Positions 1,604 through 60,190 of a stretch of 64,000 nucleotides of DNA are shown piece after piece. Position 1 is the first letter of the stretch. Each line of letters opens with the position of its first letter. The translations under genes and the position numbers were made by a program. The notes under the pieces are model-generated. The model was not told where the DNA came from. It did no database searches and worked only from the letters and a program-made list of their open reading frames with translations. The stretch spans positions 434,001-498,000 of the forward strand of contig CM039008.1 of the NCBI GenBank assembly GCA_017499595.2, in the 5' to 3' direction. The DNA comes from Psilocybe cubensis (taxonomy: Eukaryota).

Positions 1604-4600
1604 TTATGGTACATTGTGGAGTTCGTTTGGATCTAGTAGAATGCTCTCAGCATCGCCAATTACAGAATCCCATGAGTCAGGTATATCTCTAGCGGAAGGG
1701 AAATCGAGTGACGCATGCACGAAAGCGATTTGGCTTTCGAAGGGTGAGAGGGGACAACCGAATTCCTGTGACAAGAATCTCAGAGTCTCTTCATCTACTT
1801 GCTTGATTGTCTCCCAAATCTTTGAGAGAAAGTATTGTTTGCTATCTACGCATTCACATTCATTACTTCTCTGTATTGTTGACGCAGGTGGTGGACTCAC
1901 TGATTACGTTAAACATTGGAGCCAAAGGATGTACATTTTGCGATATGGCTTGATACAATGGTTTGATGATCTCGGGATGAATAATTTTTGGGTGAAGATC
2001 GCCTACGATTAAGTTTGGCATTAAGCGTAATCCCGTGCAGTGTAGTCCTTGTAACTCACGATACTGCATAATAGTTTCCAATGTATATACCAATTCGCTG
2101 AGTAAGAACGTTGCATCTCTGGTGTTTATGATATGTATGATAAGATCCATCAGAATAGTGATATCGATCTCATCCCTCAGATCGCCTACCACGACGCCGT
2201 ATTCAGATTTATTGAGCGGAAAGAGGGTAGTAAAATCACGCACCGTAGCCACACAGGTATCCAACCCCAGAAAGTACTGCTTGGGAGACATAATTGTCGG
2301 GAGAAGTGCCGAGCTTCATAATTCTTCCAAGAGCACTGCTCAACATAATAGTGCTCCGACCATCCTCTTAAAAACAGAGTTCAATGACTTTGAACGGCAT
2401 TGTGGAGTAGCATAGACAGTAACTAACTTGTTGTCGCTATCTCCAACACAATCTCAATGGTCGATAGCTGTATTGCAGAGTCATTACTTGCAAGATTAGC
2501 TGATAGTGTGTCCATGTATTCAAGGGTGAACATAGAGCAGGCAGATGATTCTTACGACAGAAAATTAGTTGTCTTTCTGTATTAATTAAACGAAATATTT
2601 TTACCGCATTTCAGAAGCTTTAGAAGAAGATTTAAAGCCGTCAACCTGAAGAGGCTGTCACTGCTCGTTGAGGCGTGTAAGAGTGACCGTACGAGACTTC
2701 CTAACACAATCAATTGACGAAGCTGGGCTAAATTTGAAGGATAAATTGTTAAATCGAACAAATAATAGTTGGAAAATGTTGTACCATGGTTAATTATGTG
2801 TTCCAATGCATTCATGACATTCTCTTGCACCTCGAGCTCGCTTGTCGAGTCAAAGATCTCAATGACACTCATGAAAATCTCTGTGGAAAGAAACTTTATG
2901 ATAGTACTACCTATATTACGAGTCAATGTCTGATGCACAAAGAAGGTTGCATTAGACATACAGCTTTTGCGGCGACTGCACTCAGCGCAGCGTGATATGA
3001 CAAGCAGGGCAGCCATAGTTTCATGATATCTCTTGGTCGACAATAGCTTGCTTAGTATGACAGGGGTCCAATCGGTAAGGCTCTCAATCGGATCTGTGTC
3101 TACGAAAAATGGGTAAGAATATGCCACAAGCGCCAGCTATGTAAGGAACATACTATATGGTTTTAGCATACAGGTTTCCAAGAGCTTCAATGCCATTTGG
3201 CTCATCCCAGATCGATCCGCCCAATCTCTCCAAATGATAGTCAATAATGAGTCAATAATACCGTTGGACTGCACAATGAGCGATTTCATATGGTCTTTAA
3301 AATGTAGTTGAGCCAGATAATTGCAGAGATATCTAACGAGGGCTTACCGTGCTCCATAAGACTGATCAACAGAGTAAGTGATGCTCGCTTAACAGACGGT
3401 TCTCCCAAGTCTAGACGTTGAAGTAGGCGAGGAACAATCGTCGAATCGCTTACTTCTTGTCGGAGATCCACTTGCAATATGTATCAGTATAATAAAATGC
3501 GGGAAAGTCTCGAAATGGATCATACAATACTTCAAACAATGCTTCAACAAGTCCATGGAGAGCATCTGTGATGATGGCTCTGGTCTTCCCAGTAAATAAA
3601 CCATGGTTTGTATGAAGCCCGCAGAGACAAGATGGTTCTTTATGTCGCTTCTTAGCAATGTCAAAAAGTTGTTGGTATCATGATCTAATGTGGAAAGGAA
3701 AGAAGACATTGTTTCAGAATGAAAGACTGAAGCAGAGGAGCAAGAAAGGAACGTACATTTATCCAGTATATTAATTAGTGAGTTGTATGTAATATCAATG
3801 GACCACGAATTAAACGCGTCCGTATTAGAAATTGTATTAAGCTGAAATAGAATAACGTCTGCGTTGAATAAACAGTCGTTGATTGAATCTGTATATTTGG
3901 GTAGTCAGAGTGGCCAGGTACAGCTCAGATATACACCGCATCACCCACCATCACACGAAATAACGTATAGAAGTAAGAATAATTTATCGGTGAACTCTGA
4001 CATCGATTTTCCAAATTTGAATATGTCAATCAGTGGGTCCATAATGGAAGGTATCAGAACCATCTTCAGCTCGTCTGTGTAAATATTAATCATAAGTATA
4101 GAAGAATCTGTACAATACGTCGAGCCCATACCAAATTGCAGGCACATGTGTACAAAGTCTATGATGTGCCGATGGATGCCTGCTTCAGATCTATTCTGGA
4201 TTAATGCTAATCCTACGGCCTTGCCCAAGTCAATTAATGTTTGTTTTGAACGAGAATCCTCTGTACAACACATTGTCAAGGCAATTCAAGATCATTTAAA
4301 GGACTATTTACCAAACTGTAGTATGACGATCAGGACTTTCATAGCCGCAATCTGCAAACTGTCGTCTCCAGTTTCGAGCATATTCAACAAGGCACTAGTG
4401 TGATTTAACTGGTTAAATTTGTCTCTTGGATAATCTGTCAAAAGCAATCACGAATCTACTATGGAACACTGGTAAAGGGACGTACTATGACGCAGAAATT
4501 GAGAAAGAACCATCACTGCCGCTTCCTGCACATTCAAGTGCTCGCTTTTCAGCATCCCAGCGAGGAATAAGGTAAGGATGGATTCAATGCAAGGTTCTAA

Positions 4601-6901
4601 CATTGACTGGCTGTAGAATACCTCTAAAAATACACTTTAGCTATCAAGGTTTGGATGGATTGGTTAAGGAGTACCTTGATTGTTGTCAGATTCGTCCGTG
4701 CCGTCAAACCGAAGGAAAACCGCAAATGTAAGAAGTGCTTCACATTGAAACTGGGAATCATTGCCTGGAATATGGTCGAGCAATAGGCCGACGATGCCCT
4801 GGTGGATCAGTGCTACACAACAAGACTCTAGGTATCATCAATTTCTGGAGTCACTGCCCATTGAAGCGAAATAGAAAGTACATACCATGGACACCTATGG
4901 CAGAAATGGAACTCAGTACTGCTCTTTGAACCCGTTTTTGTGGGTGTTTTATCATATTGGAAAGCGTGTTTCCGAGTTCAGGACCTAAAAGCATGGGATG
5001 CATGCGTTCTATTGCCGATATGAGACGACAATCGGATTATACAAAGCCACAGTACGCACCATTCAGAGCCAAACATTTGAGTGTAGATCCCTTATCCATC
5101 GCAGAGAGAATAAGAGAAGCGTCAATCAACCACTGTCGATGCAGAGGGTTTGTACAATTAGAAATCACTTCCGGAATACGATTGGTGAATTCGGCAGGTA
5201 TCAGAAATCCTGAGCGTATCCGCACATGGATGTGGATGCAAATAATCAATTCAAGAATATCGTCTTGGAACATATCCCAATTTGACAGGGTCCCTCCCGG
5301 TTGCAGAAAAGCTACGAGTGAGCTAGCGCTCCAATTTAAGGAAGAATGGGTGGTCTGGACAAGAGACAGCATAACTGTAAGGTATGCTCGAGTTACATCG
5401 GAAGAGGTTTCAGTCTTGTCTAGGGAGGATAGAAGCTCCGTGATGTTGCGGGTCAAGACTGGTAATGGGTCTGCAATATACAAAGCCTCCTGCAACCTTG
5501 ACGACATGGGTAGTCCCGCAATGGCACAGACTGGATCATCAAGTTTGAAGGTTCGCGCCAGTGAAAACAGACCAACGAGGACATCTGTCCTCAATTCGTC
5601 TGATGGGGGGTTTGAAACGAGCATGAGATGATATAAAGATGAGAATGTGTCGAAGATGCCCTTTGTCCATGTCCTACGAAGTTTGGTCGTGGACAAAAAG
5701 ACATGGTCGACATGTGTGTAAGAGCCGGTAACTCTCCGCGCCTTACGTCGGCGTTGGCGGGGAGTGAATACCAAGTGTCCAATCGCATCTGCCAGGAGAA
5801 TGAGAGGAATAAAGACGCCAGGAATCTAATAAGAGATATGTTGATGTCCTTCATAGAATTTAAAGACCATCGCTTACAATTGGCAGCAAGCCAGATATCG
5901 GAGTATTAAACGGGGAATTGGGATTGAGAAGCGGGCGAATGCTACATCCTAGGTAGAGGAGCATGGTGATGGCAATAAGCGTCGTCACAACTACCCCAAT
6001 TCGCGGGTTGTCCTGAAACAATAAAATGACGAGGCCGCCAAAGAAGAGGTAAAAGGCAATGTGCAAGGTTATTGGCAGGGCATGTATAACAGCTCGTAGA
6101 TGTCGTTGGTCGTCGCCAAAGAACCGTCGATGACGATTGCAGGCGTCGATTATGGGCAGTCCAGCTGATACAGGAATAAATTGGGATACCCACCCTTTCG
6201 CCAAGATTGTGCCAAAGGCACCCGTTAAGGCAAAAGTGAGGCTGACGAACCAGAGTCCATTCACCCATACCAAAGGTGATGAGGGTACAAAGGTTGTTGA
6301 TAGCAGGGAATTCTGATGACTTTCCGACGACAGGGTTTGAATGAGGTCTCTGATCAAATTATTCGTGATAGCCTGAGGGTCTTGTTGGAGATCTTTTCGT
6401 GTCTCGATAAGAAAGGCAGTCAAAATGGCAGAAAACAGGCCCGCCTATAAATTGACGTCAGAAACAAAATTGTGGAACAAGCAAAACATACAAATATCAA
6501 GATGGTATCCAAGTCACTGTTCCATATTCTCATCAACTCTTCGCCTTTTGATTTGGTCAAGTCGAGGTACATCGACCAGACCTTTGCATCATCTACTAGG
6601 TAGTCCGCGAATGGGTTTCGGAGGTCTGCATTGGAGGTTGCCACGTATTCCCTAGCTGCCGTTTCAATGGATGCTCTCGATGGTGGCCGGTAGACTAATA
6701 CGATTGTTGTTATTGGTCTTTTTCAGGCGCATCTGAGGTAAAAAACATACCCTTTGTGTCAGACAACCGTGATTCTGCCCTCTCCACGTCGCGGGGAAAT
6801 GGAAAACGATAAGCAAGCGCTGATAGAGTACTGGTCCCATTCCCTGATTGGATTCTCAGGCACCGTGCGACAATCTCCCAAAACGACGATTTCGCCTGCA
6901 T
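1604..6901 (-). CDS. Full-length DUF6535-like transmembrane-domain protein with C-terminal ARM/HEAT-like helical repeats (multi-exon)
   Basis: Manual splicing gives an open frame: ATG 6901, exons 6901-6751, 6694-6492, 6444-5878, 5825-5060, 5008-4886, then further short exons. The motif 'DAKVWSMY...WNSDLDTILIF/AGLFSAILTAFLIE...DLQQDP...VWVNGLWFVSL' is recognised as DUF6535-like. Downstream exons encode ~40-aa leucine-rich helical repeats (e.g. 'IVPRLLQRLDLGEPSVKRASLTLLISLMEH'). Stop inferred at 1604-1606; the 3' exon boundaries are not all resolved. Confidence 0.75.
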
Positions 6902-14263: not shown

Positions 14264-14271
14264 TATAAAAG
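14264..14271 (+). promoter_or_regulatory. Putative TATA box followed by a pyrimidine-rich start region (units 1-4)
   Basis: TATAAAAG, then a CT-rich tract ~14290-14365 and a GTGAGT donor at 14393. Confidence 0.35.
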
Positions 14272-14918: not shown

Positions 14919-17123
14919 TCATGTCCGAGCAATAACCGCCCCAAACCAAAGGAAAACCGCAAATGTAAGAAGTGCTTCGCATTGAAACTGGGAATCATTG
15001 CCTGGAATATGGTCGAGCAGTAGGCCGACAATGCCCTGGTTGATCAGCGCTACACGATAAGACTCTAATTATCATTAATTTCTGAAGTGAAACAGAGAGT
15101 GCATACCATGGACACCTATGGCAGAAATGGAACTCAGTACTGCTCTTTGAACCCGTTTTTGTGGGTGTTTTATCATATTGGAAAGTGTGTTTCCGAGTTC
15201 AGGACCTAAAAGCATGGGATGCATGCGTTCTATTGCCGATATGAGACGACAATCGGATTATACAAAGCCACAGTACGCACCATTCAGAGCCAAACATTTG
15301 AGTGTAGATCCCTTATCCATCGCAGAGAGAATAAGAGAAGCGTCAATCAACCACTGTCGATGCAGAGGGTTTGTACAATTAGAAATCACTTCCGGAATAT
15401 GATTGGTGAATTCGGCAGGTATCAGAAATCCTGAGCGTATCCGCACATGGATGTGGATGCAAATAATCAATTCAAGAATATCGTCTTGGAACATATCCCA
15501 ATTTGACAGGGTCCCTCCCGGTTGCAGAAAAGCTACGAGTGAGCTAGCGCTCCAATTTAAGGAAGAATGGGTGGTCTGGACAAGAGACAGCATAACTGTA
15601 AGGTATGCTCGAGTTACATCGGAAGAGGTTTCAGTCTTGTCTAGGGAGGATAGAAGCTCCGTGATGTTGCGGGTCAAGACTGGTAATGGGTCTGCAATAT
15701 ACAAAGCCTCCTGCAACCTTGACGACATGGGTAGTCCCGCAATGGCACAGACTGGATCATCAAGTTTGAAGGTTCGCGCCAGTGAAAACAGACCAACGAG
15801 GACATCTGTCCTCAATTCGTCTGATGGAGGGTTTGAAACGAGCATGAGATGATATAAAGATGAGAATGTGTCGAAGATGCCCTTTGTCCATGTCCTACGT
15901 AGCTTGGTGGTGGACAAAAGGACATGATCGAGGTGGGTGTAAGAGCTGGTAACTCTCCGCGCCTTACGTCGGCGTTGGCGGGGAGTGAATACCAAGTGTC
16001 CAATTGCATCTGCCAGGAGAATGAGAGGAATAAAGACGCCAGGAATCTAATAAGAGATATGTTGATGTCCTTCATAGAATTCAAAGACCATCGCTTACAA
16101 TTGGCAGCAAGCCAGATATCGGGGTATTAAATGGGGAATTGGGATTGAGAAGCGGGCGAATGCTACATCCTAGGTAGAGGAGCATGGTGATGGCAATAAG
16201 CGTCGTCACAACTACCCCAATTCGCGGGTCGTCCTGAAACAATAAAATGACGAGGCCGCCGAAGAAGAGGTAAAAGGCAATGTGCAAGGTTATTGGCAGG
16301 GCATGTATAACAGCTCGTAGATGTCGCTGGTCGTCGCCGAAGAACCGTCGATGACGATTGCAGGCGTCGATTATAGGCAGTCCAGCTGATACAGGAATAA
16401 ATTGGGATACCCACCCTTTCGCCAGGATTGTTCCAAAAGCACCCGTTAAGGCAAAGGTGAGGCTGACGAACCAGAGTCCATTCACCCATACCAAAGGTGA
16501 TGAGGGTACAAAGGTTGTTGATAGTAGGGAATTCTGACGAGTTTCCGACGACAAGGTTTGAATGAGGTCTCTGATCAAATTATTCGTGATAGCCTGAGGG
16601 TCTTGTTGGAGATCTTTTCGTGTCTCGATAAGAAAGGCAGTCAAAATGGCAGAAAACAGGCCCGCCTATAAATTGACGTCAGAAACAAAATTGTGGAACA
16701 AGCAAAACATACAAATATCAAGATGGTATCCAAGTCACAGTTCCATATTCTCATCAACTCTTCGCCTTTTGATTTGGTCAAGTCGAGGTACATCGACCAG
16801 ACCTTTGCATCATCTGCTAGGTAGTCCGCGAATGGGTTTCGGAGGTCTGCATTGGAGGTTGCCACGTATTCCCTAGCTGCCGTTTCAATGGATGCTCTCG
16901 ATGGTGGCCGGTAGACTAATACGATTGTTGTTATTGGTCTTTTTCAGGCGCATCTGAGGTAAAAAAACATACCCTTTGTGTCAGACAACCGTGATTCTGC
17001 CCTCTCCACGTCGCGGGGAAATGGAAAACGATAAGCAAGCGCTGATAGAGTACTGGTCCCATTCCCTGATTGGATTCTCAGGCACCGTGCGACAATCTCC
17101 CAAAACGACGATTTCGCCTGCAT
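14919..17123 (-). CDS. C-terminally truncated DUF6535 copy 2 (~651 aa, open frame, novel end ...AVFLWFGAVIART*)
   Basis: Same five introns as copy 1, with splice sites retained. Exon lengths sum to 1956 nt. The last exon crosses the array junction to TGA at 14919-14921. The 1-bp poly-A indel near 16961 lies inside intron 1. Confidence 0.7.
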
Positions 17124-20087: not shown

Positions 20088-20537
20088 TGTCAGGGTTTCT
20101 CCAGTTTCCCCTCTTTATCTTCACAGAATTATCTTATCCTTTCATTATCTTATCAATTATCTGATTAGATAGTTTATTTCTTTCATCACAGCCTTCTTGC
20201 TCCACTTCTTTCTAGTAAATTCTATATGATTCCTAGTCTTACTCATCCTTTTTCTATATGATGTCACTTTTATTCTTTAACCTTCCTTTATGATGTAATG
20301 TAGGGAATATTCTAGAATAGCTGTAGAGTATAAATACTGGACTTGTAGGTAGCTGTAGCTTCAGCTTCAATCTCTTAGGATATCCACTATCATTGGTGTG
20401 ATCTCTTAGAACCATTGAATCTCTCTCACTCTCTTATTCTCTCTTTGCTCTCTTACTCTCCCTCTGCTCTCTCTCTCTCTCTCTTGCTTAATCTTTGTTG
20501 GTGGCCTTGTCACACTGATTATAGTGTTGCCCTGACA
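20088..20537 (+). repeat. 5' LTR of element 1
   Basis: Direct repeat of 26027-26476 with no difference seen by eye; TATAAATA at 20329-20336. Confidence 0.95.
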
Positions 20538-20539
20538 GA

Positions 20540-20550
20540 AGATTGAAGCT
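20540..20550 (+). promoter_or_regulatory. Self-priming primer-binding site of element 1
   Basis: AGATTGAAGCT is the exact reverse complement of AGCTTCAATCT (20363-20373), ~30 nt after the LTR TATA box. No TGG tRNA-type PBS is present. Confidence 0.8.
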
Positions 20551-21041
20551 CTCTCAAGACAACTCCACCATCTCTCTTTCAACACCAAACTCTTCACCTC
20601 TTCAACCTCTTCAACACCATTACCTCAACCTTCTTCCTCCACTTTCAACCCACCAACCTCTTCATCAACCTCTTCACCAATCTTCTTACCAATCTCTACA
20701 TCTCCACCAATCTTCAACATCCTCCTCAAGACCTTTCCTCAAGACCTTTCCTCAAGACCTTTGGCTCATCATCTTTCCTACTCTCTGTTGTGTGCTGTGT
20801 GTGAACTTAGTAGATAGGGATACCAACTGTTGGGGCAGACACAGTCCTACTAGTGTTCTGTTTTTGGTGGTCTAGGAAATATCCAGTAACCCTGTGATCC
20901 TAGGTTTAGAGCCCTGAGTGGTGTGACAACTGGGTATCCAGTAGATAGATATTTTTTTAGAATACTTAGTATAGTTTCAAGGGCACTTTCAGTAGATAGC
21001 TTCTCCCACACACACATCAGAGAGCCTACCTACCCCTACCC

Positions 21042-41476: not shown

Positions 41477-43658
41477 CAAACCAAAGGAAAACCGCAAATG
41501 TAAGAAGTGCTTCGCATTGAAACTGGGAATCATTGCCTGGAATATGGTCGAGCAGTAGGCCGACAATGCCCTGGTTGATCAGCGCTACACGATAAGACTC
41601 TAATTATCATTAATTTCTGAAGTGAAACAGAGAGTGCATACCATGGACACCTATGGCAGAAATGGAACTCAGTACTGCTCTTTGAACCCGTTTTTGTGGG
41701 TGTTTTATCATATTGGAAAGTGTGTTTCCGAGTTCAGGACCTAAAAGCATGGGATGCATGCGTTCTATTGCCGATATGAGACGACAATCGGATTATACAA
41801 AGCCACAGTACGCACCATTCAGAGCCAAACATTTGAGTGTAGATCCCTTATCCATCGCAGAGAGAATAAGAGAAGCGTCAATCAACCACTGTCGATGCAG
41901 AGGGTTTGTACAATTAGAAATCACTTCCGGAATATGATTGGTGAATTCGGCAGGTATCAGAAATCCTGAGCGTATCCGCACATGGATGTGGATGCAAATA
42001 ATCAATTCAAGAATATCGTCTTGGAACATATCCCAATTTGACAGGGTCCCTCCCGGTTGCAGAAAAGCTACGAGTGAGCTAGCGCTCCAATTTAAGGAAG
42101 AATGGGTGGTCTGGACAAGAGACAGCATAACTGTAAGGTATGCTCGAGTTACATCGGAAGAGGTTTCAGTCTTGTCTAGGGAGGATAGAAGCTCCGTGAT
42201 GTTGCGGGTCAAGACTCGTAATGGGTCTGCAATATACAAAGCCTCCTGCAACCTTGACGACATGGGTAGTCCCGCAATGGCACAGACTGGATCATCAAGT
42301 TTGAAGGTTCACGCCAGTGAAAACAGACCAACGAGGACATCTGTCCTCAATTCGTCTGATGGAGGGTTTGAAACGAGCATGAGATGATATAAAGATGAGA
42401 ATGTGTCGAAGATGCCCTTTGTCCATGTCCTACGTAGCTTGGTGGTGGACAAAAGGACATGATCGAGGTGGGTGTAAGAGCTGGTAACTCTCCGCGCCTT
42501 ACGTCGGCGTTGGCGGGGAGTGAATACCAAGTGTCCAATTGCATCTGCCAGGAGAATGAGAGGAATAAAGACGCCAGGAATCTAATAAGAGATATGTTGA
42601 TGTCCTTCATAGAATTCAAAGACCATCGCTTACAATTGGCAGCAAGCCAGATATCGGGGTATTAAATGGGGAATTGGGATTGAGAAGCGGGCGAATGCTA
42701 CATCCTAGGTAGAGGAGCATGGTGATGGCAATAAGCGTCGTCACAACTACCCCAATTCGCGGGTCGTCCTGAAACAATAAAATGACGAGGCCGCCGAAGA
42801 AGAGGTAAAAGGCAATGTGCAAGGTTATTGGCAGGGCATGTATAACAGCTCGTAGATGTCGCTGGTCGTCGCCGAAGAACCGTCGATGACGATTGCAGGC
42901 GTCGATTATAGGCAGTCCAGCTGATACAGGAATAAATTGGGATACCCACCCTTTCGCCAGGATTGTTCCAAAAGCACCCGTTAAGGCAAAGGTGAGGCTG
43001 ACGAACCAGAGTCCATTCACCCATACCAAAGGTGATGAGGGTACAAAGGTTGTTGATAGTAGGGAATTCTGACGAGTTTCCGACGACAAGGTTTGAATGA
43101 GGTCTCTGATCAAATTATTCGTGATAGCCTGAGGGTCTTGTTGGAGATCTTTTCGTGTCTCGATAAGAAAGGCAGTCAAAATGGCAGAAAACAGGCCCGC
43201 CTATAAATTGACGTCAGAAACAAAATTGTGGAACAAGCAAAACATACAAATATCAAGATGGTATCCAAGTCACAGTTCCATATTCTCATCAACTCTTCGC
43301 CTTTTGATTTGGTCAAGTCGAGGTACATCGACCAGACCTTTGCATCATCTGCTAGGTAGTCCGCGAATGGGTTTCGGAGGTCTGCATTGGAGGTTGCCAC
43401 GTATTCCCTAGCTGCCGTTTCAATGGATGCTCTCGATGGTGGCCGGTAGACTAATACGATTGTTGTTATTGGTCTTTTTCAGGCGCATCTGAGGTAAAAA
43501 AACATACCCTTTGTGTCAGACAACCGTGATTCTGCCCTCTCCACGTCGCGGGGAAATGGAAAACGATAAGCAAGCGCTGATAGAGTACTGGTCCCATTCC
43601 CTGATTGGATTCTCAGGCACCGTGCGACAATCTCCCAAAACGACGATTTCGCCTGCAT
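41454..43658 (-). pseudogene. Truncated DUF6535 copy 4 with premature stop (CGA>TGA)
   Basis: G>A at 42311 (+ strand, within a CpG) ends ORF 42309..42530 at ...LFSLA*. There is also a P>R change in ORF 41793..42263. Confidence 0.75.
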
Positions 43659-45794: not shown

Positions 45795-45967
45795 TGTTAG
45801 AGTTCCCTCTAACGTAGACACACACACGTGCCTGTAGTCACATATCACACAGTATTTGTAGACACACCCGTAGCTACGTAGCCTCAGTTCCTTCTTTGTT
45901 AGCACACCCAACACGTTCTGGTCCTTCGTCTCTCTCTCCCGCCTCGTCTCCGGGTCTCCTCCTAACA
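45795..45967 (+). repeat. 5' LTR of element 2
   Basis: Direct repeat of 52048-52220 with no difference seen by eye. Confidence 0.95.
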
Positions 45968-46514
45968 TCAAGAAGGAACTCTAACACATTCAAAACATCC
46001 TCTCTCATCGCCTTTTGGCATTTCAATACCACCGTTTCCCAAACTGCCTGGACTACCTCGTTCCCCTTCGATCCTGCCCATCCAGCAGGATATCGAAGCC
46101 TGTACCGACACTTGTGACCGCTACTCTTGGCAATTATTTTTTTTGCAAAGAGACCTCTTGTTGCACGAAGAAACCCTGCGTATTGCTTCCAACCAGGGTG
46201 CATCTTTTGATACCCTTCGGCGACTTACTGCTGCTGTTATAGACTGTCAACGGTCAATCTCACATACCAGAGACCTTCTCGCTTCCGCTGAAAGACAGTT
46301 GCGTTACCTACACGACCAGGCTGATCGCGTTCGCGACCTACAAGATTGTCTGGCTACTCTGTCTCGCCGCATTGATAATCTGGCTTTTACCACCTCTCTT
46401 AGCCCTGCTATTTTGTCTGGACTTCACGCCCGCCTTGACGATATTCTCAGCTCTCCTCTCTTCTCCAGGTCCTCTACCCCAGACAGCTTACCTGACCTTG
46501 AACCCTCCGATTAG
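45966..46514 (+). other. ATG-less open frame upstream of gag in element 2, coiled-coil-like
   Basis: The frame of ORF 46143..46514 stays open back to TAA 45963-45965 and contains a heptad-like stretch 'LLASAERQLRYLHDQADRVRDLQDCLATLSRRIDNL'. No in-frame ATG. Confidence 0.4.
45970..45980 (+). promoter_or_regulatory. Self-priming primer-binding site of element 2
   Basis: AAGAAGGAACT is the exact reverse complement of AGTTCCTTCTT (45886-45896) in the LTR; no tRNA-type PBS is present. Confidence 0.8.
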
Positions 46515-46610
46515 AAGCGCATATATTCACCCTTTTGGCGCATACACCCACCCTCTCTGTTTTTTTCTCTTTCCTTTTTTTAATTCGCTTCTCGCTTATC
46601 GTTTGCACTC

Positions 46611-47795
46611 ATGCCTCCCGGAAAAAGTAAAGGTCGTTCGGTCTCCCCCCGTCGTGGTCGTGACGGTAGTGATGACGACACTGTGTCCCGAATTGACCCT
46701 GCCATTATCGCTCTCATTAAGGCTAGCCAGGAATCCAATAAAGAAACTATGAAAGATATTCTCGAACTGTCGCGTATACAAGCCGAAACTATGTTCAAAT
46801 CATTCCTCGCGTTACCCCAACTCCAAACCTCTACCCACTCCTCTGCGACTACCTCTACCGCCCGCTCTGGTGATTCACGCGCTTATAAGGTGCCCTTTCC
46901 AGGTGCCTTCGACGGCTCCTCTGATACTGTCGAAGACTTGCTGGCCTCATGGCGTAACTTTTTTCACTCCGACCCCGAAGCATACAAAACCACTGATTCC
47001 AAAGTACGCACCGCTCTCAGTTCTTTCAAGACCGGCACGCCCGCTGTCTGGCGTAACCAGCTCATTGAAGAGCTAGAGTCTGGGCAATGCGTCTTAACCA
47101 ACTGGTCCGACTTTGAGGAGCGCGTGAAAGACTCCTTCCTGTTCCATTTCTCGCAACAACGCGCGGCACGCGAGATCATGTGCATCCGTCAGAACTCCAC
47201 GCCCACTCAAGAGTTCATTATTATCTTCGAGAACCTTGCCTTTCGCTCCAAGTTTAACGACGAAGCGTTGATCCAATGCTTCAAAATGGCCTTGGATAAG
47301 CGTATTATGGAGGAGATTGGACGAACACACCGTGAGATGCCCACATTCGCGGAATGGAAGAGTGCCGCAATCTTGATGGCTCACAGACTGCGTGAGACTG
47401 ATGCCACGGTGACTCCGGTCGTCAACACCACCGCCACCTGGCGTCCTCCCCCTTCTTTCACCTCCACCCCTTCCACTGTTCAAAAGTCTAGCAACCCCCG
47501 CCCCGCTGCTCCTGCCCCCAACGCGACTCTACCTGCAAACATCTCCGCTGCTCCGAATCGACGTGCCGCCCTGCCCTGCTTTAACTGCGGCGTATTTGGC
47601 CACTTCATGCGAGTCTGCCCCAAACCCAAAGATCTCGAATTCCAACGCAAATCACGCGCAAAACTGGAACGAGCTCGGGCCGTCCTCGAGTGCTTTGATG
47701 CTTTGCCTGATGACGACAAGCATGAGATTCGATGCGTTGATGTTGACGAAAGTGCCTTGTTTGATGATTCGGATTTTGTTTCTTGCGTCGAGTGA
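46611..47795 (+). CDS. gag: Gag of element 2
   Basis: 394-aa ORF with 'FPGAFDGS', 'IRQNSTPTQEFIIIF' and zinc knuckle 'CFNCGVFGHFMRVC'. Confidence 0.92.
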   Translation: MPPGKSKGRSVSPRRGRDGSDDDTVSRIDPAIIALIKASQESNKETMKDILELSRIQAETMFKSFLALPQLQTSTHSSATTSTARSGDSRAYKVPFPGAFDGSSDTVEDLLASWRNFFHSDPEAYKTTDSKVRTALSSFKTGTPAVWRNQLIEELESGQCVLTNWSDFEERVKDSFLFHFSQQRAAREIMCIRQNSTPTQEFIIIFENLAFRSKFNDEALIQCFKMALDKRIMEEIGRTHREMPTFAEWKSAAILMAHRLRETDATVTPVVNTTATWRPPPSFTSTPSTVQKSSNPRPAAPAPNATLPANISAAPNRRAALPCFNCGVFGHFMRVCPKPKDLEFQRKSRAKLERARAVLECFDALPDDDKHEIRCVDVDESALFDDSDFVSCVE

Positions 47796-50700
47796 GTAGT
47801 ACGTCCTCGCCGCTTCTGTACAACAACCCTGTAATTACTCCCAAATTGCATGTTGCATTGTCTCCAAAATCCGTACCTCTGCCCGTGTTACCTGTTTACG
47901 CGACCCCTCAACCTTCATTATCCAATTCTGTATTGACTCCTGACAAGCCCTCTTCTTCAACAACATCACCCAACTCCGACTACCCGACACCAACACTCCT
48001 GCCCGCGCACCCACAACCTCCAACTATGGCACCCGATTGCATTCCATATTCAGACCTCTTTTTATCCTGTCCTGAGGATGATCCACCAGAGCTGCAAGCC
48101 CCAGATGCCTCTGATGATTCGGATGAAGATTCGCCAACCAAGCCTGCTCAACAAACCTCCGCCCACGATGATGCATCTGTCTCTATGACACACGATGCAA
48201 GTCCACCACCGGCCCCACGCGACTCTCTACTTTGCAGCCCGCCCGTCGCTGACCACACAGACTGCCCGCCTTCAATCCCTACACCTGTCCGCACCGTCCT
48301 GTGCAACTTGCGCCGATTACGCAGCACGCCTTGGCGAACCGAGAGCCTGCTCAAATCCTGGGCCCCAAAGGAGCGTTGGGACGACATTGACGATGATCTG
48401 ATTGCTGCTCTTTGCGATCTCCCCTGGACCGACGCCGCCAAAGTCCTCCAGCAGCTCAAGAAGCCCCGCGACTACATCTCCCGCATGGGGAGTAAATGCC
48501 TTGACATTCCAATGTCGGCTGCACCCCCAGGCTCGACCTCTTTGGTGTCGCTGAAAGCGCTCTTAGACAGCGGTGCCACTGGTTGTTACGTGCACTCCGA
48601 TTTTGTCAAACTCAATGGATGGGTGACTGAGCGGCTGCCCCACCCCGTTAGCGTTTACAATGCAGACGGAACTCGCAATGCCAACGGTGCTATCACAGAT
48701 GTTGTTTACCTTGTCATCCGCATTGAAAACCATGTTGAGCGACTCCGCCTTTCAGTCACCAACACGGGATCATCTTCCCTCATCCTCGGGCACTCCTGGC
48801 TCTGGTTCCATAATCCGCTTGTTGACTGGCGAGAGGCCAAGCTCTGCTTTGCACGCTGCCCCACGTCCTGTGGTGCTGACGTGCTGCCGACTTCGCACCC
48901 TGATGGCGAAACCGTGAATGTTTGCCGCGAAGGACCCCAGCTCCGTGAAGACGACATCTTTGATGACAGCCCGGGCCCCTTCACGCCGGTCTCTGCTGCG
49001 GAATGGGCTGACGCCTTTGCTGGTGAACTTGCCGATGGTGAATCGATGTGCGCGGTTGACCTCAATGAGTTCACGTCCGAACAAGTCCATGGCTCATGCG
49101 ACCACCGCATTTCTCACTTTTTGCGAACTCAACGTGAAGCAGCTTCATATCCCGACCGCTACCTGAAGGAATTTGCACCTGTTTTCTCCAAAGAGGAGTT
49201 TGACGAGCTCCCACCCCGTCGCCCATGGGATCATGCTATTAACCTGAAACCAGATGCAAAGTCGTTCAAAGCAAAGCCGTACCGTCTGTCGCCCGCTGAA
49301 ACCTCGAAGGTCAAGGAATGGATAGAAGAGGAAAAACGCACTGGCCGTATACGGGACTCCATCTCTCCCTATGCCGCCCCTTTCTTCTTCATCCAGAAAA
49401 AGGATGGCTCACTGCGCCCTGTGCAAGACTACCGACGCCTGAACGATATCACGATCAAGAACCGCTATCCATTGCCGCTCATCTCTGACCTCATGGACAA
49501 GCTTAAAGGCGCGAAAGTATTCACCAAACTTGACGTCCGCTGGGGTTTCAATAACATTCGTATCAGGGAAGGCGATGAGCACAAGGCTGCCTTTATCACG
49601 GAGTTTGGACTTTTTGAGCCTCTTGTAATGTTCTTTGGATTGACAAACTCACCAGCTACCTTCCAGAATATGATGAACGATCTGTTCAAGGATCTCATTG
49701 CTGGCGGCCATGTCGTGATATATATGGATGACATCCTCATCTTCACTGATGATGTCCAGTCCCATCGACATCTTGTCCGCAATGTCTTGCAGATTCTGGA
49801 GGACAACAAGCTTTATCTGCGGCCAGAAAAGTGCTGTTTTGAGCAGGACCGTGTGGAATACTTGGGCGTCATTGTCGGCCACGGGAAAATGTCCATGGAT
49901 CCCAAGAAAGTTGACGCTATCACCTCTTGGCCAATCCCGCGCTGTCGTAAGGACGTCCAACAGTTCCTCGGTTTCGTCAACTTCTACCGTAGGTTTATCA
50001 AGAACTTCTCCCGCATTGCCGCTCCCCTGCATGCCCTGGGTGGTTCGGCGCCTTGGGTATGGGACAATTTGTCAACATCCGCCTTCAACGAGCTCAAATC
50101 CGCCTGCGCTTCACACCCGGTGCTACTTCTTCCCCGCGACGGTGCCCCATTCCGCATAGAGGCAGACAGCTCTGGATACGCAACCGGCGCGGTGCTCAGC
50201 CAATTTGTTGACAATTCCTGGCAACCGGTCGCGTTTGCTTCAAAAGCCCTCAGTCCCGTTGAGCGCAACTACGAGATACATGACCGCGAACTACTGTCAA
50301 TCATGAGGTCTCTCGATGACTGGCGACGCTACCTCCACGGCTCCGATTCTCCTGTTGAGATCCACACCGATCACAAGAACCTTCAGTATTTCATGACCGC
50401 TCAGAAATTGAACCGTCGTCAGGCTCGCTGGTCCCTGCAGCTCGCTGAATTCGATTTCGTACTCGTCCACAAGCCAGGCCCGACCATGATCTGCGCAGAC
50501 TCGTTGTCCCGCCGCCCCGACTACGATAAAGGTGTTGGCGACAACGAAAACGTCACCTTACTGCGCCCAGAACACATTCGACGTACTGCTGAATGCTCAA
50601 TTGGGGATGACCCCGTCCTGGCTGACATTCGAACTCACCAGCACCAAATCACTGAAATGTGGGAAAAGCACAAGAACCTGCCTGGCTGGTCCCTCCACGA

Positions 50701-52036
50701 CGGCTTGCTTTCATGGCATAACCGAATCTTTGTGCCAAACAAAGGCAACTTGCGTCAACGAATACTCGCCGACTGTCATGATCACCAATCCGTAGGCCAC
50801 CCTGGCCGGATGAAGACCATGGAACTCGTCCTGCGCGACTATTGGTGGCCGTCACTATCAAAAGACGCGAAGCGTTACGTTGATGGATGCCCCACCTGTC
50901 AATCAACTAAGCCTCTGAGGATGGCGCCCGCGGGCCTACTGACCCCCAACGAAATCCCTTCCTCCAATTGGGAGATCATTTCCTGTGATCTCATCGTGGA
51001 CTTACCTAAATCTCGCGGCTTCGATTCGATCTTTGTCGTCGTCGATAGACTCTCAAAAATGGTTCGTATCATCCCATGCAAAAAGTCAATCACTTCTGAG
51101 GGTCTCGCGCGCCTCTTCCGCGACCATGTCTGGAAAGACTTCGGACTGCCACGACGCATCATCTCCGACCGTGGTTCAATCTTCCTGTCAAACTTTACTC
51201 GGGCCCTCAACGACCTGCTAGGCATTTCACAGAACGCGTCCACCGCATTTCGACCTCAAACAGACGGACAAACTGAGCGCGTCAATCAAGAAATCGAACA
51301 ATACCTACGGATCTTTGTGAATAACAGGCAAAATGATTGGGTGGAATGGCTTGCATGCGCCGAATTTGCTATCAACAATAAGATTCACTCGTCCACTGGC
51401 TTCTCGCCCTTCTTCCTAAACTATGGCTCCAACCCCCGCCGAACCCTGCAACCCGCACGCCTCTCGGACGACCGTGTCCCCAAAGCTCTTGAATTCGCCT
51501 CTCAAATGGATTCCCTCGCGAAGGAATCCGCTTCAGCGCTAAACCTCGCCGCTGATGCAATGAAGCGATCCTATGACACCTCTCACCGCGCTCCACCCGT
51601 CTTCAATGTTGGCGACATGGTGATGCTCAGCGCCTCCGACATCAAGTCCTCACGTCCGTCTAAAAAGCTCGATGTTAAGCGTCACGGACCTTTTCCTGTG
51701 ACGAAACGCGTTGGCATCCAGTCTTACACCCTCGACCTACCGGCCTCGTGGTCGATCCACCCTACTTTCCATGTCTCTAAACTCTCCCGTTTCATACCAG
51801 CAGAATTCGATTCCCAAACTTCACCCGCGACACCAACACCTCCCCCCGCGTTACCACCCCCAGACATTGCAAGTGTGCTCGGCCACAGGGCCCTGCGCAG
51901 TGGAACACAGTTCCTCGTGCTGCTCGATGGCTGCACAGAGGAAGACGCTTCGTGGTCAAGCCACTCATCCTTCCCTAACTCTGAAGTACTAAACAATTAC
52001 ATACGCCTCCACAACATCCCGGACGCCCACCTTTAA
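47771..52036 (+). CDS. pol: Pol of element 2 (long Pro/Ser-rich leader, protease, RT, RNase H, integrase, degenerate chromodomain), predicted -1 frameshift
   Basis: LLDSGAT, YMDD, ADSSGYATGAVL, integrase. The -1 frame opens after TGA 47765-47767 and contains G GAT TTT at 47771-47777, within the gag overlap. Confidence 0.95.
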   Translation, partial: GFCFLRRVSSTSSPLLYNNPVITPKLHVALSPKSVPLPVLPVYATPQPSLSNSVLTPDKPSSSTTSPNSDYPTPTLLPAHPQPPTMAPDCIPYSDLFLSCPEDDPPELQAPDASDDSDEDSPTKPAQQTSAHDDASVSMTHDASPPPAPRDSLLCSPPVADHTDCPPSIPTPVRTVLCNLRRLRSTPWRTESLLKSWAPKERWDDIDDDLIAALCDLPWTDAAKVLQQLKKPRDYISRMGSKCLDIPMSAAPPGSTSLVSLKALLDSGATGCYVHSDFVKLNGWVTERLPHPVSVYNADGTRNANGAITDVVYLVIRIENHVERLRLSVTNTGSSSLILGHSWLWFHNPLVDWREAKLCFARCPTSCGADVLPTSHPDGETVNVCREGPQLREDDIFDDSPGPFTPVSAAEWADAFAGELADGESMCAVDLNEFTSEQVHGSCDHRISHFLRTQREAASYPDRYLKEFAPVFSKEEFDELPPRRPWDHAINLKPDAKSFKAKPYRLSPAETSKVKEWIEEEKRTGRIRDSISPYAAPFFFIQKKDGSLRPVQDYRRLNDITIKNRYPLPLISDLMDKLKGAKVFTKLDVRWGFNNIRIREGDEHKAAFITEFGLFEPLVMFFGLTNSPATFQNMMNDLFKDLIAGGHVVIYMDDILIFTDDVQSHRHLVRNVLQILEDNKLYLRPEKCCFEQDRVEYLGVIVGHGKMSMDPKKVDAITSWPIPRCRKDVQQFLGFVNFYRRFIKNFSRIAAPLHALGGSAPWVWDNLSTSAFNELKSACASHPVLLLPRDGAPFRIEADSSGYATGAVLSQFVDNSWQPVAFASKALSPVERNYEIHDRELLSIMRSLDDWRRYLHGSDSPVEIHTDHKNLQYFMTAQKLNRRQARWSLQLAEFDFVLVHKPGPTMICADSLSRRPDYDKGVGDNENVTLLRPEHIRRTAECSIGDDPVLADIRTHQHQITEMWEKHKNLPGWSLHDGLLSWHNRIFVPNKGNLRQRILADCHDHQSVGHPGRMKTMELVLRDYWWPSLSKDAKRYVDGCPTCQSTKPLRMAPAGLLTPNEIPSSNWEIISCDLIVDLPKSRGFDSIFVVVDRLSKMVRIIPCKKSITSEGLARLFRDHVWKDFGLPRRIISDRGSIFLSNFTRALNDLLGISQNASTAFRPQTDGQTERVNQEIEQYLRIFVNNRQNDWVEWLACAEFAINNKIHSSTGFSPFFLNYGSNPRRTLQPARLSDDRVPKALEFASQMDSLAKESASALNLAADAMKRSYDTSHRAPPVFNVGDMVMLSASDIKSSRPSKKLDVKRHGPFPVTKRVGIQSYTLDLPASWSIHPTFHVSKLSRFIPAEFDSQTSPATPTPPPALPPPDIASVLGHRALRSGTQFLVLLDGCTEEDASWSSHSSFPNSEVLNNYIRLHNIPDAHL

Positions 52037-52047
52037 GAGGGGGGTGA

Positions 52048-52220
52048 TGTTAGAGTTCCCTCTAACGTAGACACACACACGTGCCTGTAGTCACATATCA
52101 CACAGTATTTGTAGACACACCCGTAGCTACGTAGCCTCAGTTCCTTCTTTGTTAGCACACCCAACACGTTCTGGTCCTTCGTCTCTCTCTCCCGCCTCGT
52201 CTCCGGGTCTCCTCCTAACA
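52048..52220 (+). repeat. 3' LTR of element 2
   Basis: Follows the PPT and is followed by TSD TTGAT. Confidence 0.95.
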
Positions 52221-55200
52221 TTGATACATCGTGTCGAGGTAGAGTCCATTCCCGGCATCACTCGAGGCTGAATGTGTTGGTCGGCGGACGTCGATACATG
52301 GCATCAGCGCATTCCCGGAAGTCGATGCAGCGTGTCGAGGCAGAGTCCATCCCCGACACCACCCCACCTCGAGTCTGGGCTGAATGTACTGGTCGGCGGA
52401 CGTCGATACATCGTGTCCACGCGTCCCCACCACCGGAAGTCTACGTCACGTCAAACGGCACCTCCCCACCTCAAGTGTCGGCTGAATGTGTTGGTCGGCG
52501 GGCGTCAATACATAGCGTTAACGCGTCCCCAGGACCGGAAGTTGATACGTCGCGTCAAGGCAGAGTCAACGCCTCCACTAACGCATGAACGCTGCCTCGA
52601 GACCACCCCACCTCGAGTGTCGGGTAGATGAGCTGGTCGGCGGGCATCGATATATAGTGTCAACGCAAACGCGACACATCTCCCGTCGTGAACTCATACC
52701 GCCGGGCGTCGATATATCGTGTTCGCGCATCCGTGGGTAAACTCCTCAGGGTCGCAGACGCGCACGGACCTATGTTCCGTCATCTGGAGACTAGAACTGT
52801 GTCAATAGTTGTTTTTGGAAAGATATTAACTTGTACATACCTCGGGAACATACTTTCATGCCTTCAGGAGGATGGCTCTAGGATGTATTGGTGAACAACT
52901 GCAAGATAAAAAGGTCAGAATAAGCTAATACAATGCACAGAGAGTACATACCAAAAATACAACGTCTGCACCCTCAGAAGCGCCCATGTGGCAGTCATAT
53001 TGTAGCAAAACTATTGAAAAAGGTCAGAAAAAGTGGAGGAACATCATGGAAAGACTTACAGAGAAGAGGGGACAGCAGAATGGAAAAGTCGAAAGCAAGG
53101 CAGCCGTGAACTCCTGGAATCAACTTTTAGTTTTTTGTTTGGCAGCACCACCATGAGCAAACATACCGACAAGGAGCTCAACTTGGCTTCAGACGCAACC
53201 ACGACCATGAAAAGGCCAGGATACGGCCAGAAAGACGCCCAGCATTATGGGCGCACATTGGTGGGTTCTCTCATTTGTACAAGCCTTTATATACTCATTT
53301 TCTGCCAAGATATTACATGAATTGTTAGGTTTTGTTGACGCGTCGAGCATACGCGCTGCGTTCAACAATCTTTGTTGATTCAAGGTACATTCTCTGCGCG
53401 TTTGAAGGTATGTTTTATTTCTCTCCGGTTGAACAGTACGCTATGTTGACGTTATCGGGTATGTTTGACTCCATTTTTTTCATTAGCTCCGGCACTTGAT
53501 TGACTGACGACTTCCTCACAAAAGATTTTAATGTAAGTTCTCTTTGCACAATTTTATTGGATTCATATTCCACTTCTCCATTTATCGACAGTAACGACGC
53601 GAATACGAACACTGCAACAGGACGCACGCTGCAAAAAATTGAAACCGGAGGGCGGCGTCAATGGTCAGGGTAGCATTTGTTTGAATAATCGTACGTTGCC
53701 GATTCCCCGAGTCTCCGTGCTATCCTGACAAACCTGAATTTGCTGGCAATCAGAATCTTACCCTGACTCTTCTGTTTCACCCACCACCACGTCTTTTCCC
53801 CTCTCCAAATTCATCCCCTCACTTCCACATTTTCTCCCCATTTTCACGGAGGATTGGATACACAGTGAGTATTCTTCAATGGTACAACGTGCAACGTGCT
53901 TACAATCTTTCAGGAGCTTTTGAAGCTACGCGTTGCTCCTGCAAACTCTTGTCCAAGAGTCCGTGCTTACTGGAAGCCACAGACGATTTCCCGTGTCAGA
54001 CACGAACAGGCGCCTCATGTCTGCGACTCCCCATCGTATTGGACTCTCAGACTACGCAATACCGAACCGTCAGGGAAAGTTTACCAGAGGTCAAGGCGAT
54101 TCAGGTTGTGAGTGGAGACTCTTCACGACAAGCAGAACTCACATTTTTGTCTGACAGTGTGCACGCGAACGCTGCTTTGTGAGTATCCTCTTGTCCTCAA
54201 TTTTATTTGTCTGCTAACTTTATTGCAGCTTCAGAGAACCGTGAAGACTTGACGCAGTGTTCACGCGCACTCGTCCTCAATTCGATATGTCTGCTAAATT
54301 GATTGCAGCTTCAGAACCGTAAAGATTTGACGTGATATTGCTGGGACCGGTAGCTTGTACGTATCCACAATTTAATCCTATGAATAACACTGCATCATCC
54401 CTCTTGTTTAGGACATTATCGACCCTACTAACATCGCGTGTAACTCTCCAGAAATAACATCGAGGCATTACAATGGAGAATCTTCAGAATTCGGCCGTAG
54501 AATTTCCACCACATAACCTTTCCCCCATCCCCCATATCCGCTACTGTCCATTTCAAACACTTCTCTTGAGTTCCTGGCATGTGGACATCGGCTACATCCT
54601 CCCGGCATACGTCAACTGTGATGCTACTTGGGTGGTAAACGTAAAATAGCATTGGTTGATGCACAAATTTCGGGGTTCAACGAGAAGGTACGGTTATTTC
54701 ATTTAGGTTCCTTCGCTTCAACTTCATTTTATAAGGTTTCTGTAGTCAGTATCGAGCTAAATATCGTTAAGCGCCGTGAATTTGTTTTAATATGAATAAC
54801 GTATTCTGCTCTTTTTTGACTCAACAAAGCTCGATTCAGTCTGGAATAATGTATAATTGCTCTAGCTACTACTCAGGGTCCGTAGATAGCTCCAAAATCG
54901 ACGGAAAAAGTGCTTTGAAATGACATACGGACATGTTCTCCTCGCCTCCTTTAACACACTCACCCTCGTTTCCGAGGGCAAAATCGACTGGTAGGGCTTT
55001 AGACCTCGGCATCACTTCACTGACAATTAGCACCATACATTTCTGGAAGAGAATATGAGGTCATACCGGATACACAAGTCACAAGGCAAACATGCACTCT
55101 TCAAGATTAACTATGCCAAATTCGGGTTAATCTGGCAAACGGTCAATGTATTTCGGCCATGTCAGTGTCTAGTTAGCGTGTGCCAGCTGGAATACACGTA

Positions 55201-57985: not shown

Positions 57986-60190
57986 TCATGTCCGAGCAAT
58001 AACCGCCCCAAACCAAAGGAAAACCGCAAATGTAAGAAGTGCTTCGCATTGAAACTGGGAATCATTGCCTGGAATATGGTCGAGCAGTAGGCCGACAATG
58101 CCCTGGTTGATCAGCGCTACACGATAAGACTCTAATTATCATTAATTTCTGAAGTGAAACAGAGAGTGCATACCATGGACACCTATGGCAGAAATGGAAC
58201 TCAGTACTGCTCTTTGAACCCGTTTTTGTGGGTGTTTTATCATATTGGAAAGTGTGTTTCCGAGTTCAGGACCTAAAAGCATGGGATGCATGCGTTCTAT
58301 TGCCGATATGAGACGACAATCGGATTATACAAAGCCACAGTACGCACCATTCAGAGCCAAACATTTGAGTGTAGATCCCTTATCCATCGCAGAGAGAATA
58401 AGAGAAGCGTCAATCAACCACTGTCGATGCAGAGGGTTTGTACAATTAGAAATCACTTCCGGAATATGATTGGTGAATTCGGCAGGTATCAGAAATCCTG
58501 AGCGTATCCGCACATGGATGTGGATGCAAATAATCAATTCAAGAATATCGTCTTGGAACATATCCCAATTTGACAGGGTCCCTCCCGGTTGCAGAAAAGC
58601 TACGAGTGAGCTAGCGCTCCAATTTAAGGAAGAATGGGTGGTCTGGACAAGAGACAGCATAACTGTAAGGTATGCTCGAGTTACATCGGAAGAGGTTTCA
58701 GTCTTGTCTAGGGAGGATAGAAGCTCCGTGATGTTGCGGGTCAAGACTGGTAATGGGTCTGCAATATACAAAGCCTCCTGCAACCTTGACGACATGGGTA
58801 GTCCCGCAATGGCACAGACTGGATCATCAAGTTTGAAGGTTCGCGCCAGTGAAAACAGACCAACGAGGACATCTGTCCTCAATTCGTCTGATGGAGGGTT
58901 TAAAACGAGCATGAGATGATATAAAGATGAGAATGTGTCGAAGATGCCCTTTGTCCATGTCCTACGTAGCTTGGTGGTGGACAAAAGGACATGATCGAGG
59001 TGGGTGTAAGAGCTGGTAACTCTCCGCGCCTTACGTCGGCGTTGGCGGGGAGTGAATACCAAGTGTCCAATTGCATCTGCCAGGAGAATGAGAGGAATAA
59101 AGACGCCAGGAATCTAATAAGAGATATGTTGATGTCCTTCATAGAATTCAAAGACCATCGCTTACAATTGGCAGCAAGCCAGATATCGGGGTATTAAATG
59201 GGGAATTGGGATTGAGAAGCGGGCGAATGCTACATCCTAGGTAGAGGAGCATGGTGATGGCAATAAGCGTCGTCACAACTACCCCAATTCGCGGGTCGTC
59301 CTGAAACAATAAAATGACGAGGCCGCCGAAGAAGAGGTAAAAGGCAATGTGCAAGGTTATTGGCAGGGCATGTATAACAGCTCGTAGATGTCGCTGGTCG
59401 TCGCCGAAGAACCGTCGATGACGATTGCAGGCGTCGATTATAGGCAGTCCAGCTGATACAGGAATAAATTGGGATACCCACCCTTTCGCCAGGATTGTTC
59501 CAAAAGCACCCGTTAAGGCAAAGGTGAGGCTGACGAACCAGAGTCCATTCACCCATACCAAAGGTGATGAGGGTACAAAGGTTGTTGATAGTAGGGAATT
59601 CTGACGAGTTTCCGACGACAAGGTTTGAATGAGGTCTCTGATCAAATTATTCGTGATAGCCTGAGGGTCTTGTTGGAGATCTTTTCGTGTCTTGATAAGA
59701 AAGGCAGTCAAAATGGCAGAAAACAGGCCCGCCTATAAATTGACGTCAGAAACAAAATTGTGGAACAAGCAAAACATACAAATATCAAGATGGTATCCAA
59801 GTCACAGTTCCATATTCTCATCAACTCTTCGCCTTTTGATTTGGTCAAGTCGAGGTACATCGACCAGACCTTTGCATCATCTGCTAGGTAGTCCGCGAAT
59901 GGGTTTCGGAGGTCTGCATTGGAGGTTGCCACGTATTCCCTAGCTGCCGTTTCAATGGATGCTCTCGATGGTGGCCGGTAGACTAATACGATTGTTGTTA
60001 TTGGTCTTTTTCAGGCGCATCTGAGGTAAAAAAACATACCCTTTGTGTCAGACAACCGTGATTCTGCCCTCTCCACGTCGCGGGGAAATGGAAAACGATA
60101 AGCAAGCGCTGATAGAGTACTGGTCCCATTCCCTGATTGGATTCTCAGGCACCGTGCGACAATCTCCCAAAACGACGATTTCGCCTGCAT
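57986..60190 (-). CDS. C-terminally truncated DUF6535 copy 5 (~651 aa; E>K and S>L substitutions)
   Basis: ORFs 58325..59062, 59148..59711 and 59708..59932 are open; same junction stop at 57986-57988. Confidence 0.7.

Follow-up and report, generated by a model that had tools for sequence, protein, structure and literature searches.

Here we describe a 64,000-nucleotide (nt) stretch of the Psilocybe cubensis genome (contig CM039008.1, positions 434,001 to 498,000 of the forward strand; hereafter the window) that comprises one full-length gene for a membrane protein with a DUF6535 domain and ARM/HEAT-like repeats, and a tandem array of truncated copies of the same gene. The window matches annotated P. 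cubensis proteins exactly. It is dominated by a head-to-tail repeat with a unit of about 10.2 kb, of which five (c1 to c5) lie within the window according to self-BLAST (Table 1). The array begins inside the full-length gene, and no second copy of bases 1-4704 was found in the window by self-BLAST, even with a word size of 11. Within unit c1, the 5' part of the gene takes up 2.2 kb and upstream DNA about 7.9 kb; in the latter, neither the list of open reading frames (ORFs) nor Pfam revealed a further gene. Two unit spacings were measured (about 10.2 and 16.4 kb), the longer one because two long terminal repeat (LTR) retrotransposons sit in c2 and c4. The same sequence is present at all four junctions within the window, and about 4.3 kb surrounding every junction is nearly identical. 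The public protein P0006 combines the change E132K with a Pro-to-Arg change and lacks S378L, a combination absent from every window copy; the array thus appears to extend past the window and to hold at least six copies, the sixth presumably represented by P0006.

Table 1 Coordinates of the features discussed, as positions in the window (aa, amino acids; CDS, coding sequence)
Feature	Position	Strand	Details
Left array boundary	4705	.	Inside exon 6 (4827-4675), second of 17 one-repeat exons
Array unit c1	4705-14941	.	10,237 bp; self-BLAST
Array unit c2	14942-31255		Holds LTR retrotransposon; self-BLAST
Array unit c3	31256-41476		Self-BLAST
Array unit c4	41477-58008		Holds LTR retrotransposon; self-BLAST
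Array unit c5	58009 to window end		Self-BLAST
Truncated copy c2	14919..17123	-	Open, 646-651 aa, tail ...FLWFGAVIART*; stop ends at 14919; junction 14941/14942
Truncated copy c3	31233..33436	-	Open, CDS identical to c2; stop ends at 31233; junction 31255/31256
Truncated copy c4	41477..43658	-	CGA>TGA at codon 398 (42201-42203), plus P429R
Truncated copy c5	57986..60190	-	Open, E132K and S378L; stop ends at 57986; junction 58008/58009
Full-length gene	1604..6901	-	22 exons, 1,378 aa; ATG 6901, stop 1604-1606
One-repeat exons 5-21	1901..5008	-	17 consecutive phase-1/phase-1 exons, 102-159 nt
DUF6535 match	6013..6578	-	Residues 90-262; intron 6491-6445 inside; coordinates from exon table
X1-backed introns, first five	5877-5826; 4885-4828; 4674-4624; 3948-3889; 3756-3685	-	GT..AG
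X1-backed introns, other five	3525-3471; 2427-2367; 2243-2186; 2059-2003; 1900-1846	-	GT..AG
Mosaic block	4705-6700		c1 alone; c2 = c3 = c4 = c5, at most 3 differences per bin
Mosaic block	6700-12130		Type A (c1, c3), type B (c2, c4, c5); up to 62 substitutions per 500 columns
Mosaic block	12133-12633		c4 differs
Mosaic block	12633-14941		All same; at most 1 difference per bin among c1-c4
Ty3/gypsy chromovirus in c2	20088..26479	+	Intact; 453-bp LTRs 100% identical; target-site duplication GAAAG
Second, different Ty3/gypsy element in c4	45795..52221	+	174-bp LTRs 100% identical; target-site duplication TTGAT

The array is a real copy-number variant, which is young and differs between strains. 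We aligned the contigs of four public runs to positions 1300-14941; run X1 was judged to be RNA-like from its spliced contigs. The DNA run X2, distinguished from the window by differences at several sites of the flank, has an uninterrupted path from the flank into the gene (a contig over 3329-4741), and the back-joint 14941>4705 is present in another of its contigs (2,348 nt). Contig depths in X2, which are not copy numbers, rose from 78-84 in the flank to 161 for the contig with the junction and 175-223 between 4940 and 7214, suggesting that this strain carries a few copies. In the DNA run X3, one 10,592-nt contig covers 1300-7398 at a flat depth of 25.4, the 14941>4705 back-joint was not found, and 8580-14941 is almost without cover; X3 thus has a single full-length gene and no array. 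The variant pattern of X1 matches that of the array-less X3, and X1 therefore cannot inform on transcription of the truncated copies; among the loose ends and joints listed for X1 (12 loose ends and 6 joints are unlisted), none is a loose end or back-joint at 4705. The locus shows what characterizes a tandem segmental duplication, namely head-to-tail units, one junction sequence, presence in X2 and absence from X3. It also resembles ordinary duplications of this kind in its strain-variable copy number and in the homogenization of its units by unequal exchange; what is special is that there are at least six copies, each with a complete promoter and membrane domain, and nothing essential differs.

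Transfer of the exons of the full-length gene confirmed that copies c2 to c5 retain the upstream region and the start codon ATG, together with five introns whose GT..AG ends are intact and a complete membrane region. A first, sequence-only reading of this stretch had described these retained parts and had placed the breakpoint in an early helical-repeat exon, a new stop past the junction, and open frames of about 651 amino acids in three of four copies, all of which is borne out: c2, c3 and c5 read nine codons beyond the junction to the stop, and c4 carries a nonsense codon. That the gene lies on the minus strand goes beyond what that reading stated. The length is 646 amino acids with the annotated acceptor of intron 5 and 651 with the acceptor used in X1 (4828). 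The same reading had held that most of the repeats were lost. About two thirds are gone (the end of exon 6, all of the 15 one-repeat exons after it, and the C-terminal exon), and the copies retain approximately residues 345-640 of the solenoid, equal to about six proximal repeats, so the loss falls short of nearly all.

Intron 5 carries a 16-bp deletion in every array copy (window positions 4852-4867), with which acceptor 4828 would leave an intron of 42 nt. Splicing in the array copies may instead shift to the next acceptor, 15 nt further along; the reading frame is kept with either one. Public models of the array copies are 569, 624-625, 453 or 397 amino acids long, and the 397-residue NCBI protein P0003 corresponds to c4. 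The 569-residue models end in NGAYCGFV*, the read-through of a retained intron 4 (5037-5059 and equivalents). At about position 7161 of c1 there is a T/G difference between units, giving ATT in c1 and c3, and ATG followed by GAAGG/GTAAGT (the slash marking the splice site) in c2, c4 and c5. This ATG makes the extra upstream start exon 'MEG' of the 624-625-residue UniProt models, a start that the full-length copy does not have.

Divergence between c1 and the array copies appears allele-like and under purifying selection: c1 and c2 differ over the shared 1,918-nt CDS by 25 synonymous and 11 nonsynonymous changes (synonymous divergence dS 0.055; nonsynonymous-to-synonymous ratio dN/dS 0.14). In runs X1 and X3, c1-type and array-type states occur mixed at the sites diagnostic of c1 versus the array copies, from which we take these differences to be old alleles. 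Among c2 to c5, only four changes occur in the shared CDS (E132K, S378L, R398* and P429R), comprising no synonymous, three missense and one nonsense change, and the CDSs of c2 and c3 are identical. This pattern has P = 0.008 if dN/dS is 0.14 and P = 0.32 if evolution is neutral, and Fisher's test of these changes against the counts for c1 versus c2 gives P = 0.015. Constraint within the array thus seems relaxed, with no sign of purifying selection in these changes.

A scan of the aligned units in 500-column bins resolved a mosaic of four blocks (Table 1). The near-identical surroundings of the junctions indicate a single founding junction that spread recently. The diverged blocks must have entered by exchange with other haplotypes, because they are too different to have arisen after the amplification.

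Both retrotransposons have gag and pol frames with Ty3/gypsy domains, and both appear to have landed after the amplification. They are inserted in one GC-rich block (c1 equivalent 7775-10042) with degenerate repeats of about 51 and 102 bp. The 6.4-kb element in c2 encodes gag, pol and a chromodomain and contains no CpG at all, against 267 expected (GpC = 216); the CpG content of the element in c4 is normal (observed/expected 1.0). Within the upstream DNA of c1, 7779-8158 shows very high contig depth and is bordered left and right by loose ends in each of the four runs, the RNA-like X1 and X5 included; it resembles a portion of a dispersed, transcribed repeat. Three ORFs of the c1 upstream stretch gave no Pfam family, the scan being limited to those three of the ORFs of at least 55 amino acids in 6900-14941. 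No Rfam family was detected in bases 1-20100, and no tRNA in the whole window.

The full-length form is transcribed and spliced. Contig joints in X1 back 10 of its 21 introns, all with GT..AG ends on the minus strand (Table 1); five others are supported by annotation only and six are inferred. These six have good donors and lengths of 51-57 nt and keep a single frame open, and two of them contain an X3 indel. A 684-nt X1 contig reads 5365...4827 and 4675...4623 and on to about 4522, thereby crossing 4705 into the unique flank. Across the 22 exons a single open spliced frame reaches the stop at 1604-1606, and at least five of the six X3 indels within 1604-6901 fall inside modelled introns; the sixth (2772) lies in an intron whose placement partly relied on that indel. 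Stretches without X1 cover (for example, 6760-7669) are uninformative, and X5 contigs leave nearly all of the gene uncovered. The public model of the gene, P0004 (738 amino acids, JR316_0011310 in its source), is identical letter for letter to c1 over exons 1-8 and terminates at 4307 (...QFGK*). It is too short because the GTAAAT donor at 4311 was missed, and about 640 amino acids of the gene are missing from the public protein sets searched. A 313-amino acid open frame on the plus strand (window 270-1211) adjoins the 3' end of the gene; it has a long acidic middle part rich in Asp, Ser and Asn, and no Pfam family was found on it.

The encoded protein is composed of an N-terminal tail, the DUF6535 membrane domain and an ARM/HEAT-like solenoid of about 1,030 amino acids. 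The DUF6535 assignment, proposed from sequence alone, holds by profile: P0004 matches Pfam DUF6535 (PF20153) with E 9.1e-48 and 162.9 bits (cut-off 23.9), the truncated-type protein P0005 scores 162.2 bits, and exon 5860-6444 alone gives E 1.4e-37. Five hydropathy peaks of 19 residues each (residues 113-131, 182-200, 243-261, 267-285 and 301-319; score 1.7-2.3) mark the membrane helices, and AlphaFold2 models show long helices in the membrane region with a predicted local distance difference test score (pLDDT) of about 84-94. An Arg/Lys-rich stretch follows the five membrane helices, and the solenoid is therefore probably cytosolic. The solenoid starts soon after the last membrane helix and so includes the 262-amino acid 'middle' exon downstream of the membrane domain, which matches one cluster of ten P. 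cubensis proteins. Exons 5-21 form a one-exon-one-repeat solenoid: each encodes a repeat of about 34-53 amino acids, and the 17 peptides align to a common pattern of hydrophobic helices flanking a small polar turn.

The region after DUF6535 is predicted to have an ARM/HEAT-like fold. In the AlphaFold2 model of P0004 (31 sequences; mean pLDDT 74.7), the protein is all-helical, with helix pairs and triplets; residues 570-738 have a pLDDT of only 45-82. Foldseek ranks designed armadillo proteins, importin-alpha3 and APC-ARM highest (best E 7.9e-4, template modelling (TM) score 0.17-0.27), and VIA-align gives Z up to 13.1 (root mean squared deviation 2.8 Å over 116 residues), most rows covering residues 377-738. 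Neighbours of the ESM Atlas model are the Vac8, importin-alpha, PP2A-A and beta-catenin clusters (TM about 0.5, approximately residues 340-738). Scores of all three kinds are within the range that unrelated helical repeats can reach by arrangement alone, and we therefore name the fold ARM/HEAT-like rather than assign the protein to either family. The Pfam repeat families on P0004 are below their cut-offs (HEAT 18.2 of 23.5 bits, Arm 17.1 of 20.6, HEAT_2 16.4 of 27.7), as is a V-ATPase_H match, and none of four C-terminal ORFs has any Pfam match at E <= 0.1. Of the ARM/HEAT identity initially proposed, the exon-repeat pattern is borne out, the fold matches are compatible with it, and no Pfam repeat profile passes its cut-off on P0004. 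The DUF6535 core folded alone has a pLDDT of 83.9; among solved structures, Foldseek returned no match to it at E <= 0.001, and its best VIA rows (NINJ2 filament, Z 8.7; ORAI, 7.8; WeiTsing, 7.6; SipB, 7.6) are in the common range of helical bundles. An ESM Atlas search by features gave no usable match. The solenoid, in its probable cytosolic position, most likely provides a binding platform tethered to the membrane.

A DUF6535 plus ARM/HEAT-like architecture is already catalogued, and the family is large in mushroom-forming fungi. P0017 ('armadillo-type protein [Mycena sp. CBHHK59/15]', 1,212 amino acids) has DUF6535 at 2.7e-51 and HEAT at 1.4e-44 and aligns with 67% of P0004 at 35% identity; its HEAT region aligns to residues 884-1281 of our 1,378-residue model (independent E-value (i-E) 2e-7 in a 57-protein set). 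Like the Psilocybe gene, P0017 and P0024 (Favolaschia claudopus) have an N-terminal DUF6535 followed by a long helical-repeat region; unlike in P0017, the Psilocybe repeats are too diverged for the Pfam HEAT and Arm cut-offs. No homologue of a 184-amino acid C-terminal ORF was found among longer proteins, and an exhaustive search of 1.84 billion representatives with a 171-amino acid C-terminal ORF returned a single relative, P0011 (266 amino acids, 41% identity). P0013 and P0014, the two closest relatives in Psilocybe cf. subviscida, lie on the same contig with locus tags that differ by two, which indicates that neighbouring paralogues also exist in that species. In the accessible parts of the literature that names DUF6535, which consists of passing mentions, we found neither a tested function for any member nor a description of tandem arrays of truncated copies.

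Residues ~345-738 resemble Vac8, importin-alpha, beta-catenin/APC and PP2A-A at the level of the fold, with no significant sequence similarity to any of them. Vac8 is attached by lipid anchors, whereas five transmembrane helices attach the Psilocybe protein. Fungal NLR-like (NOD-like receptor-like; NOD, nucleotide-binding oligomerization domain) proteins of the HET-E/HET-D type combine an N-terminal effector, a NACHT or NB-ARC domain and C-terminal WD40, ANK or TPR repeats. The Psilocybe gene shares with them an N-terminal module followed by long, fast-evolving repeats, membership of a lineage-expanded family and a strain-variable locus. It differs in that no nucleotide-binding domain is detected, the repeats are of ARM/HEAT type, the N-terminal module is integral to the membrane, and nothing seen at the locus points to incompatibility or cell death. 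NACHT and NB-ARC were found neither on P0004 (Pfam, E <= 10) nor on the four C-terminal ORFs (E <= 0.1), and we reject an NLR-type receptor identity, no NOD domain having been detected. The suggested likeness to non-self-recognition proteins is thus weak.

We consider the truncated copies to be, more likely than not, by-products of a young and probably neutral structural variant. The sequence-only reading had offered a neutral recent amplification as one of two options, and this is the one that fits better, because the copies are near-identical, the array is absent from X3 and has a lower depth in X2, and retrotransposons have inserted into it. A 10.2-kb segment, made up of the promoter, a 5' gene portion of 2.2 kb and a 7.9-kb upstream stretch, would have been duplicated in tandem once, a single founding duplication being indicated by the identity of every junction sequence. 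Unequal crossing-over would then have multiplied the segment until there were six units or more, so that every additional one bears a gene cut in the second one-repeat exon, nine foreign codons and a stop. An ordinary crossover near 6700 would have joined the array to a flank with a different old allele (the gene body of c1), and the two retrotransposon insertions would be the last step. The copies are very young, vary in number between strains and have begun to decay. The crossover history and the non-function of the truncated copies are inferences. Several points weigh against a neutral origin or limit the case for it. Open frames persist in P0006, the sixth copy, and in three of the four truncated copies of the window, all with the full upstream region. 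The four changes among c2-c5 are too few to separate neutrality from positive selection. Evidence of transcription is confined to an array-less-type haplotype (X1) and is silent on the truncated copies. Depth ratios from contigs are not copy numbers, and the right end of the array and its total copy number lie beyond the window.

Alternatively, the truncated copies might be expressed and act as a decoy, a dominant modifier or a deregulated form, with the array as a selected dosage device, which we regard as unlikely. As membrane modules with the DUF6535 anchor and the proximal third of the solenoid, but without the 15 distal repeats, they would compete with the full-length protein for partners or be deregulated versions of it. 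For a receptor with a truncated partner or decoy, the other option of the sequence-only reading, no direct support was obtained. Each copy does keep its ATG, five GT..AG introns and about 7.9 kb of upstream DNA, and three of the four in the window have open frames; the changes among them are exclusively replacements, which positive selection would also give. The C-terminal region of the family, in which one ORF had a single relative among the representatives searched, evolves fast, as is typical of recognition-type proteins. However, at so young an age the copies would be expected to have open frames by chance, and one already has a nonsense codon. The array is absent in one other strain and has received retrotransposons, one with a chromodomain; no junction transcript was seen, and the sole RNA-like run with the gene (X1) shows no sign of the array. 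It is quite improbable that the array supplies dosage-variable, dominant 'headless' receptors that titrate partners or signal without the distal sensor repeats; if it did, copy number (one, about three and at least six in three genomes) would tune a self/non-self or developmental response in mushroom-forming fungi, and this would be the first functional handle on the DUF6535 family.

The amplification could also have been driven by other content of the unit (a regulatory element, a non-coding RNA or the 7779-8158 repeat), the gene being a passenger. About 7.9 kb of each unit is outside the truncated gene, and depth over 7779-8158 is high in the RNA-like runs X1 and X5; against this, the three tested ORFs have no Pfam match, no Rfam family or tRNA was found within the ranges given above, and the loose ends on both sides of 7779-8158 in all four runs are as for a dispersed repeat copied elsewhere. 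We give this explanation very little credence. Least credible of all is an artefact of assembly, in which a repeat was collapsed or over-expanded. The window equals P0004 letter for letter and so probably derives from the same assembly as the annotation, but the units are told apart by private single-nucleotide polymorphisms, by A/B blocks that reach 62 substitutions per 500 bp and by two different retrotransposons, each in one unit and flanked by a clean target-site duplication. In addition, X2, which differs from the window at flank sites, has the junction in its 2,348-nt contig, the depth of which is about double that of the flank. The possibility of an artefact, raised in the sequence-only reading, is rejected on these grounds.

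The neutral structural variant is thus the reading that we retain, and nothing in the present data points past an ordinary variant of this kind. The public gene model is corrected to about 1,378 amino acids, with a 17-exon solenoid and about 640 amino acids that had been unannotated. The locus documents a clean, young and strain-variable copy-number variant in P. cubensis, the history of which is legible from its allele mosaics and retrotransposon insertions. It also provides a natural series with one, few or many promoter-bearing truncated copies, and thereby material with which to probe the membrane module without its distal repeats.

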